64,000 bases of DNA from Candidatus Sericytochromatia bacterium (GTDB lineage Bacteria; Cyanobacteriota; Sericytochromatia; S15B-MN24; VGJW01): the NCBI GenBank assembly GCA_035285595.1, contig JAYKGV010000016.1, positions 19,947 to 83,946 of the forward strand, given 5' to 3'. The notes beneath the pieces are model-generated. The model ran no database searches. It saw only the letters and a list, made by a program, of their open reading frames with translations, and had not been told where the DNA came from. A program made the position numbers and the translations under genes. Positions 4,058 through 5,894 of the stretch are shown piece after piece. Position 1 is the first letter of the stretch; each line of letters starts with the position of its first letter.

Positions 4058-5491
4058 TCAGGGCCTTCTGCCACCGCTGCCGTAACGTCCCCCGCCCCGT
4101 TGACCCTCTTCGGCATCTGCCGGCCGGGCCTCGTTCATGACCAGATTCCAACCGGTCATGTTGGCGAACCTCGAAGGCACGATGGCCGTGTCGACATCCT
4201 TCCGGATCTGTTCGAGGGAGACCCTGACGGCTTCGCCCGACCCTGAATCGGCCACGATTGCGAATTCGTCACCGTCTTCGTCTTGTCGAATCTCGACCAA
4301 GGTCACTTGATGGAGGACCTCTTTACCGCCTTGCTGGCCCGTCACGCTGGCCGGGACGGGGAAACCGGCGTCCAAGGCCTGACGGATCCCCCGCCACGCG
4401 AGGTCTCGGTTGATATCCGTGACCGGGACCGGAACGGCCCGATCGCCGGCCACTGCCTCGTAAAGCTTCTCGGCCTGGACCTCGGTGAGACCACCGGGCA
4501 CGCTGGCTGCACTTCGCGATGAGGCGGATGCGGTGCCCTCCGGGTCGTAGATTCCGTCCCCTCGACGTCCGCCGCCATAGGCGCCGCCGCCACGCCGGCC
4601 CCCGCCGTAGACACCGCCGCCACGGCGCCCTCCACCGTATCGGCCGCCGCCGATACCGTCGCCGTCACCTCCGTCATAGCGCTCGGCGTGCGCCATCAGG
4701 GCTTCTTGCAGAACGGCGTCGGTCGAAGAGCGACCGGACGTTTCGCCCTGCCAGTCAACGGGTGCCAGCTCGAGGAGGTCTTCGTTGGCAAGGCGCACCT
4801 TGCCTTCCCAGAGCAACCCGGTCGCCAGCCGCAGATATTCCGCGGGGTCCTGCTGGGCCATCAGGGTTTGCAAGGAAGCCACGACACACGTATTTGTCCC
4901 TTCGCCTTGGTAGACCTTGTCGGGATAGGCCACCTGGTTCACCAGATTGGCCAGTTGTCCTGCGGGTGACAGGCCACGATCCTTGAGTCCACCCGCCAAG
5001 GTGGGTGCCTGTGCTCGGGATGCCAACAGCTGCAGAATGGTTGGCGGAACATCACTTGCCCGGCCAGTCGGTGCCTTGCGCAGCAGCACACCTTCCTCGA
5101 GCAGCTTCGCCAAGGCCTGCTCCGTACCTTCGAGCGTGGCCCCCTCCAGCACCCCACCGAAGGTGCGTGCGAGCACGGCGTAACTCTCTCGATCGGGACC
5201 CGACAACTCCCTGAAGGCTTGCCTCTGAGGTCCCGACATGGCGGCCACGAACCCTTCGTGGGCCGACTTCAAGGGCACCGCGGCATTCTGCGCACGGGTC
5301 GTACGGGCTGCGAGAGTTTCTGCCGCATCGGCCTGATTGAAGCGCTTTTGAGCCTCGGCCAGCTGTTTGGCTTCTTGAATCTCTGCGGCCACCTCGAGCA
5401 TCTTGCGACTCTTGCCTTCGAGGCCCCGCTCCTGCGCGACGGGCTGCGGCCCGCCTACAAGCCCCTGCCACAGGCGTTCGGCCCAGGACAT
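4058..5491 (-). CDS. Hypothetical protein with a C39-like cysteine motif and C-terminal Gly-Arg-Tyr nonapeptide repeats; start uncertain (may extend to ~5770)
   Basis: Contains VYQGEGTNTCVVASLQTLMAQQ and a 9-aa period repeat GGGR(Y/R)GGGRRGGGVYGGGRRGGGAYGGGRRG. The 760-aa ORF in the track overlaps the divergent efflux gene, so a downstream start (ATG at 5491) was chosen. GC3 is high after 5491 and lower upstream. Confidence 0.5.
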   Translation of the reverse strand: MSWAERLWQGLVGGPQPVAQERGLEGKSRKMLEVAAEIQEAKQLAEAQKRFNQADAAETLAARTTRAQNAAVPLKSAHEGFVAAMSGPQRQAFRELSGPDRESYAVLARTFGGVLEGATLEGTEQALAKLLEEGVLLRKAPTGRASDVPPTILQLLASRAQAPTLAGGLKDRGLSPAGQLANLVNQVAYPDKVYQGEGTNTCVVASLQTLMAQQDPAEYLRLATGLLWEGKVRLANEDLLELAPVDWQGETSGRSSTDAVLQEALMAHAERYDGGDGDGIGGGRYGGGRRGGGVYGGGRRGGGAYGGGRRGDGIYDPEGTASASSRSAASVPGGLTEVQAEKLYEAVAGDRAVPVPVTDINRDLAWRGIRQALDAGFPVPASVTGQQGGKEVLHQVTLVEIRQDEDGDEFAIVADSGSGEAVRVSLEQIRKDVDTAIVPSRFANMTGWNLVMNEARPADAEEGQRGGGRYGSGGRRP

Positions 5492-5800
5492 AAGGCGGCG
5501 CAGCAGGGAGGGGGGCGAAGCTTGAGAGTCGGCCAGTGCTGGCGCAGCGGGCAGAGGAGCCGTGCGCTGGAAGGAATCCGTGGCAGCCTTGGGCAGACCA
5601 GAGGATTGGGCCGGAATCGTCTCCGCGGTGGGTGCGGGAGGAGCGATCGGGGCCGTCCCATTGATGCGCCTGACGTCGTTCAAAAGACCCAAGGTCTGGC
5701 TCCTGTCGGGAAAGCGTGGTTCGCCAATTCTTTCATGCGGTCGAAACACGGGTGCTGGACGGGGTTTTACGCGGATTTCATCATCTTTTGATTGAGCGCG

Positions 5801-5829: not shown

Positions 5830-5894
5830 GGGGAGCCTGCCCCGGGGGGAGTCCCGGCCCGATGGGTCGGGGTGTCTCGAGGGAGGAGTCGCCC

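Follow-up and report, generated by a model that had tools for sequence, protein, structure and literature searches.

The question raised by this locus was what kind of protein joins a putative catalytic-cysteine block to a run of Gly/Arg-rich repeats in a member of the Sericytochromatia, a group of non-photosynthetic relatives of cyanobacteria. The window, meaning the whole stretch of 64,000 nucleotides that was analysed, carries the gene on the minus strand (as are all features given below) as a complete coding sequence of 544 amino acids plus stop (4058..5692, stop codon at 4058-4060). Its product is 100% identical to the NCBI MAG protein VKO21_03570 of Candidatus Sericytochromatia, a 'hypothetical protein' referred to here as P0001. 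In the preliminary description the gene was taken to span 4058-5491 with an ATG start at 5491, and the N-terminal boundary has been moved to a TTG codon (5692-5690) that is preceded in the sequence, across a 7-nt spacer, by the Shine-Dalgarno motif AGGAG (5704-5700; both elements together 5690..5704). The TTG at 5692 was taken as the start because the N-terminal motif is conserved in homologues and because the deposited product is 544 aa long. This motif, recognised by homologue comparison, is the peptide MGLLNDVRRINGTAPI (aa 1-16; 5645..5692), the N-terminus being kept in homologues at only about 37% identity. Nor does the gene run into the divergent efflux promoter, as had been supposed, since its end falls 169 nt short of the efflux gene start at 5862. 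A sigma-70-like promoter or intrinsic terminator was not found around the gene.

Conservation of the candidate active site was counted in an HMM alignment of the top 155 relatives. The peptide VYQGEGTNTCVVASLQTLMAQQD (4847-4915; aa 260-282) lies in what was delimited by HMM alignment and AlphaFold2 as the first (Cys) lobe of a papain-fold domain (aa 256-340; 4673..4927). Within this lobe, Cys269 (4886-4888), the sole cysteine of the protein, was present in 153 of 153 aligned relatives, as was Gln262 (4907-4909), which precedes it by seven residues at the position of the oxyanion-hole Gln; alignment and model also place Arg321 (4730-4732) here. The second (His/Asp) lobe (aa 400-515; 4148..4495; pI 4.5), delimited by alignment, model and profile search, contains His461 (4310-4312), conserved in 148 of 148 aligned relatives, and Asp482 (4247-4249), at which all 147 aligned relatives carry either Asp (74) or Asn (73). 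An AlphaFold2 model built from 100 sequences (pLDDT 77.5, pTM 0.73) superseded a poor earlier one built from eight (pLDDT 48.8), and the predicted two-lobe fold superposes on solved clan CA (papain-fold) members. Cys269 is modelled at the N-terminus of helix 269-281, as is the clan CA nucleophile, and the clan CA order of a His on one strand and an Asp/Asn on the next is matched by His461, within strand 457-470, and by Asp482, with which strand 476-482 ends. The model thereby showed the predicted catalytic set of Gln262, Cys269, His461 and Asp482 to sit on canonical structural elements. The earlier claim of a catalytic-Cys block of papain-fold or C39-like type was therefore borne out, with the His and Asp/Asn partners for which a check had been proposed found in the expected sequence order and on the expected secondary-structure elements. 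The catalytic peptide itself was correctly recognised, its cysteine having been numbered Cys-485 in the longest open reading frame and being Cys269 of the actual protein. The supposed acidic globular tail of about 150 residues, on the other hand, is the second peptidase lobe with His461 and Asp482, the catalytic lobes as a whole being acidic (pI 4.4-4.5). Taken together, alignment and model predict that the protein is very probably an active papain-fold (clan CA) cysteine peptidase, kin to C39-like enzymes.

Database searches with the single sequence gave little: P0001 matched nothing in Pfam up to an E value of 10 and likewise no NCBIfam domain, PADLOC and PHROGs returned nothing, and the PDB sequences yielded only a chance match to SGLT2 (E 1.7). 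Word-indexed homologue searching retrieved eight relatives only, and with a 100-sequence profile six proteins, one of them new (P0163); Gly-rich words probably swamped the word index. The family was revealed only by an exhaustive HMM search, which gave 914 cluster representatives at 50% identity, all of them either without a name or 'hypothetical'; where a source is named, as in a few members, it is Sericytochromatia or Eremiobacterota. No Pfam or NCBIfam model was reached at its curated cut-off by any family member tested. The weak Pfam matches of relatives were almost all to clan CA models (C39_2, C70, DUF3335, BtrH_N and C58), those to C39_2 being seen in only 4 of 100 relatives, and the trimmed core of P0006 scored 17.7 bits against C39_2 (cut-off 24) and 11.2 against C39 (cut-off 22), both below threshold. 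When the family profile was compared with the PDB, matches were obtained to StbD-CT (E 8e-6), the Cpe1-like structure 9l5u (3.7e-5), LahT (1.3e-4) and AvrRpt2 (1.5e-4), all four covering the His...Asp...M..eF region; a PDB profile search with a repeat-free trimmed alignment gave only chance matches to uL11. By fold and profile, the nearest proteins were Gly-Gly-specific C39-like peptidases, and the earlier label 'C39-like' holds to that extent and not as membership of Pfam Peptidase_C39. A literature search on proteases of Sericytochromatia/Tanganyikabacteria and on C39 pseudosubstrates found nothing relevant. A family of 914 clusters without annotation has hereby been identified as probable Cys-His-Asp/Asn peptidases and connected with Cpe1 and StbD-CT, toxins characterised not long ago that cleave at Gly-Gly.

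The nearest characterised relatives, judged by fold and sequence profile, are the Cpe1/StbD-CT toxins together with the ComA/LahT/PCAT1 leader peptidases. Cpe1 (E. coli, 9l5u) and StbD-CT/CdiA-CT (Citrobacter rodentium, 8ssm/8ssk) are C39-like papain-fold antibacterial toxins, and homology to the toxin domain in sequence or fold is present here at an identity of only 13-17%. The toxin domains are about 140 aa long, C-terminal on PAAR, Rhs, VgrG or CdiA carriers and followed by an immunity gene, whereas P0001 is a standalone protein with a helical N-terminal domain of about 200 aa and no carrier domain, its catalytic domain is divided by a 59-aa Gly/Arg insert, and its gene shows stable chromosomal synteny with no immunity-like gene in the window. 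No toxin-carrier domain (PAAR, Rhs, VgrG or CdiA) was found in nine long relatives tested. The C39 leader peptidases (ComA PEP 5xe8, LahT150 6mpz and PCAT1 8vp3) form the N-terminal domain of ABC exporters, whereas P0001 stands alone with no ABC transporter close to its gene, and the Pfam C39 models do not reach threshold. The spacing between Cys and His, roughly 75-80 residues in C39 domains, is 192 residues in the 544-aa protein. AvrRpt2 (C70) and AvrPphB (C58) are self-processing papain-fold type III effectors, from which P0001 differs in having no type III secretion context, in the cleavage motifs and in that neither of the two Pfam models reaches its threshold.

The genomic neighbourhood was also considered. 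Nearby genes encode an RND/MFP pump, an AMIN-Amidase_3 protein and YebC, and orthologues hold a stable chromosomal position beside amiC and yebC. The downstream gene is convergent and 9 nt away, the amidase operon being convergent and not co-transcribed, while the adjacent RND/MFP pump is missing from the P0006 locus. No paralogue of the gene was found within the window, and the two small same-strand genes that accompany the P0006/P0007/P0163 clade have no homologue there. Stable synteny of this kind is more in keeping with a core gene of the lineage than with a toxin in need of self-protection. Type I secretion by way of the adjacent HlyD-family gene was rejected, the partner of that gene being an RND pump (ACR_tran) and not an ABC exporter, and the HlyD/RND neighbourhood not being conserved either.

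Between the two lobes lies a Gly/Arg/Tyr-rich insertion (aa 341-399; 4496..4672; 25 Gly, pI 10), which alignment and model delimit and which is disordered from residue 345 to 399 in the 100-sequence model. Tandem repeat finding (TRF; period 30, 2.3-2.5 copies, 77-81% matches) and translation identified three decapeptide units of the form GGGxYGGGRR (aa 348-377; 4562..4651; 30-nt period), namely GGGRYGGGRR, GGGVYGGGRR and GGGAYGGGRR, with a degenerate fourth unit, GDGIYDPEGT, reaching 4532. The preliminary description had correctly noticed a repeat, which it placed about 70 residues downstream of the catalytic peptide at 4540-4675; the distance is 79 residues from VYQGEGTNTCVVASLQTLMAQQD, and the nonapeptide units with a 27-nt period have become decapeptides with a 30-nt period. 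Its location is also not C-terminal, as the units split the Cys-bearing from the His-bearing half of the catalytic domain, and the model showed the repeat as a predicted disordered loop between the Cys and His lobes of a single catalytic domain. The repeat was kept in all eight close homologues, and the variability in copy number for which a check had been suggested was observed, unit number and flavour differing among them (two units in P0004 against three in P0001-P0003). Across the family, 39 of the 146 members with a complete catalytic domain carry a Gly-rich insert at the same place. Of 272 residues that follow a Gly-Gly run, 123 are Arg. The GGGR core persists among homologues of only about 37% identity, the units differing at synonymous sites, and the Gly/Arg motif is absent from the other open reading frames of the window. 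Chance does not account for the Gly/Arg repeat.

What is new here is a second occurrence of the insert's Gly/Arg motif at the very C-terminal end of the protein, the two copies co-varying between clades. In P0001 a single copy of the insert motif, GGGRYGSGGRR (aa 533-543; 4064-4096; from the translation), forms the true C-terminus of the protein, within a mildly basic tail (aa 516-544; 4061..4147; pI 8.7) that is disordered according to AlphaFold2 and was delimited with the help of homologue comparison. Clade-specific wording is common to both sites elsewhere: P0027 carries EFGGRGGGGGTSRG / GGRGGGGGTSR as the motif common to insert and tail, P0008 has GGGRSGMAG in both, and P0007 has a 19-aa stretch that insert and tail share without change, with six synonymous and no non-synonymous nucleotide differences. 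When kinship is ignored, tails matched their own insert at 8.9 of 12 positions as against 7.1 for other inserts, and the observed value was reached in 0 of 20000 permutations, again ignoring kinship. A Gly/Arg tail was present in 20 of 39 insert-bearing members and in 7 of 107 others (Fisher 1e-8, kinship ignored); the pairing is thus not strict, as roughly every second member with an insert has no such tail. Many members carry one short, well-defined C-terminal unit with a conserved acidic-aromatic flank, [DE][YFW]GGRGGxGG[ST]xR. These comparisons showed that the insert and tail motifs co-occur and co-vary across the family; gene conversion could have contributed to their similarity. Pairing of a co-varying Gly/Arg motif inside a catalytic domain with one at the C-terminus is unusual and readily testable.

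The best overall explanation, which we hold at about even chances, would be a peptidase family with cis-acting GG-R motifs in insert and tail. More tentatively, and by analogy, these motifs might be cis substrates of the enzyme's own Gly-Gly-directed site. Cpe1 and StbD-CT cut within an H-A-G-G-K motif of GyrB and ParE, and StbD-CT in addition cuts itself in cis after the Gly-Gly of a flexible linker (PMC12136450; bioRxiv 10.64898/2026.05.07.723447). It is from these nearest relatives only that we infer a putative Gly-Gly cleavage specificity for the present protein. Insert and tail would then resemble substrates of the Gly-Gly-directed active site of the enzyme itself, acting as pseudosubstrates that autoinhibit in cis an enzyme which is synthesised in the cytoplasm with no immunity protein as partner, or as sites of autoprocessing in the manner of StbD-CT, or both. 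Were an internal unit cut behind its Arg, the N-terminal fragment would end with the same C-terminus as the whole protein. AlphaFold assigned low confidence to insert and tail and predicted no docking of either into the cleft. The fullest form of the proposal, a Gly-Gly-directed protease with a built-in inhibitor in which the Gly/Arg pseudosubstrate of loop and C-terminus would silence the enzyme in the producing cell ('immunity in cis') until it is set free by autoprocessing or by some trigger, is unlikely as it stands. If the motifs are indeed a cis substrate or pseudosubstrate, they would represent a new mode of papain-fold protease regulation and a handle on specificity, and a built-in inhibitor would amount to a regulatory architecture new among C39-like proteases, within more than 900 clusters of almost wholly metagenomic dark matter; should the motif not serve as a substrate in cis, a useful though unsurprising annotation remains.

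A different role for the same segments, close to what the preliminary description had suggested and in our view rather unlikely, would be that of a polyanion-binding or self-associating module tethering an active peptidase to nucleic acid, the nucleoid or a condensate. Both segments are disordered and basic, the tail only mildly so (pI 10 and 8.7), and rich in Gly, Arg and aromatic residues, RGG-containing units are present, and the nearest characterised relatives target the nucleoid-associated GyrB and ParE. The sequence YGGGRRGGG comes close to the glycine-rich tails found in two kinds of RNA-binding protein, plant GRP7-type and cyanobacterial Rbp, and composition, YGGGRRGGG-like units, disorder and basic charge are all shared with RGG/glycine-rich RNA-binding domains. 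The setting differs from that in RGG RNA-binding proteins, as the tract here forms a loop of the catalytic domain and, in addition, a short C-terminal tag, there is no RRM or KH, and many relatives keep only a single defined motif. Pfam and NCBIfam searches of P0001 found no RNA-binding domain, leaving no RNA- or DNA-binding domain beside the repeats, and [DE][YFW]GGRGGxGG[ST]xR at the exact C-terminus is a more closely defined sequence than an RGG tract acting through its composition would require. A tethering module also leaves the position of the insert inside the catalytic domain unexplained, and the likeness to eukaryotic RGG/phase-separating proteins would appear to be one of composition only.

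It is distinctly unlikely that the protein is an exported effector in which the C-terminal GGRGG...R, perhaps with an N-terminal TGPL/GTAPI, serves as an export or sorting tag, and just as unlikely, under the same reading, that the internal copy is a secondary processing site or a duplication relic. Such a role would agree with the nearest solved relatives being delivered toxins, with the motif standing at the very C-terminus in many members, and with at least two family members lying 4.3 kb apart on one contig (from the same metagenome sample as the P0006 orthologue). Neither a signal peptide nor a Sec-type hydrophobic signal was found in the 544-aa protein, which also suits this reading, and family N-termini are long, disordered and effector-like, with a short motif enriched about 22-fold. 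Against this, the nine long members have no toxin-carrier domain, no conserved secretion gene adjoins the locus (the RND/MFP pump being no protein exporter and absent at P0006), and the window holds no immunity-like gene. The internal copy is apparently under purifying selection, which argues against a relic, and the stable synteny speaks against a mobile effector.

A papain fold may also serve an acyltransferase, transglutaminase/ligase, deamidase or isopeptidase with the same Cys-His-Asp chemistry, as in BtrH/CtaG, phytochelatin synthase-like enzymes and PeiR, but a non-peptidase of this sort is very unlikely here, as the only significant profile relatives (StbD-CT, Cpe1-like, LahT and AvrRpt2) are true peptidases, the gene is convergent with the amidase operon and no export signal directs the product toward the wall. 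Neutral low-complexity expansion by replication slippage in a tolerant surface loop of a GC-rich genome, leaving the repeat without a function of its own, is highly improbable: the varying unit number, the disorder of the loop and a GC content of 60-71% in the window, which favours Gly and Arg codons, would all suit it, but the GGGR core is kept at about 37% identity despite synonymous differences between units, and the motif recurs at the C-terminus in co-variation with the insert.

The remainder of the protein precedes the catalytic domain. MGLLNDVRRINGTAPI includes the short motif T-[GAR]-[PTK]-[LI], of which a second copy, TAPL, is found at aa 44-47, and it is this motif that is enriched within the first 60 residues of family proteins. 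N-myristoylation of the MG... N-terminus was considered and rejected, the protein being bacterial and its residue 6 an Asp, which the N-myristoylation consensus disfavours at that position. A disordered Pro/Ala-rich linker follows (aa 17-60; 5513..5644), pLDDT being below 50 over residues 1-57, and then an all-helical N-terminal domain (aa 61-255; 4928..5512) that is modelled confidently from about aa 100; it has no Pfam match, and its C-terminal part is conserved throughout the wider family. At the start of this domain an amphipathic helix (aa 62-78) is followed by G79-G80, with hydrophobic residues at -4, -7, -12 and -15. As a weak lead, aa 62-80 might act as a 'double-glycine leader' in cis, the Gly-Gly being present only in the clade of P0001.

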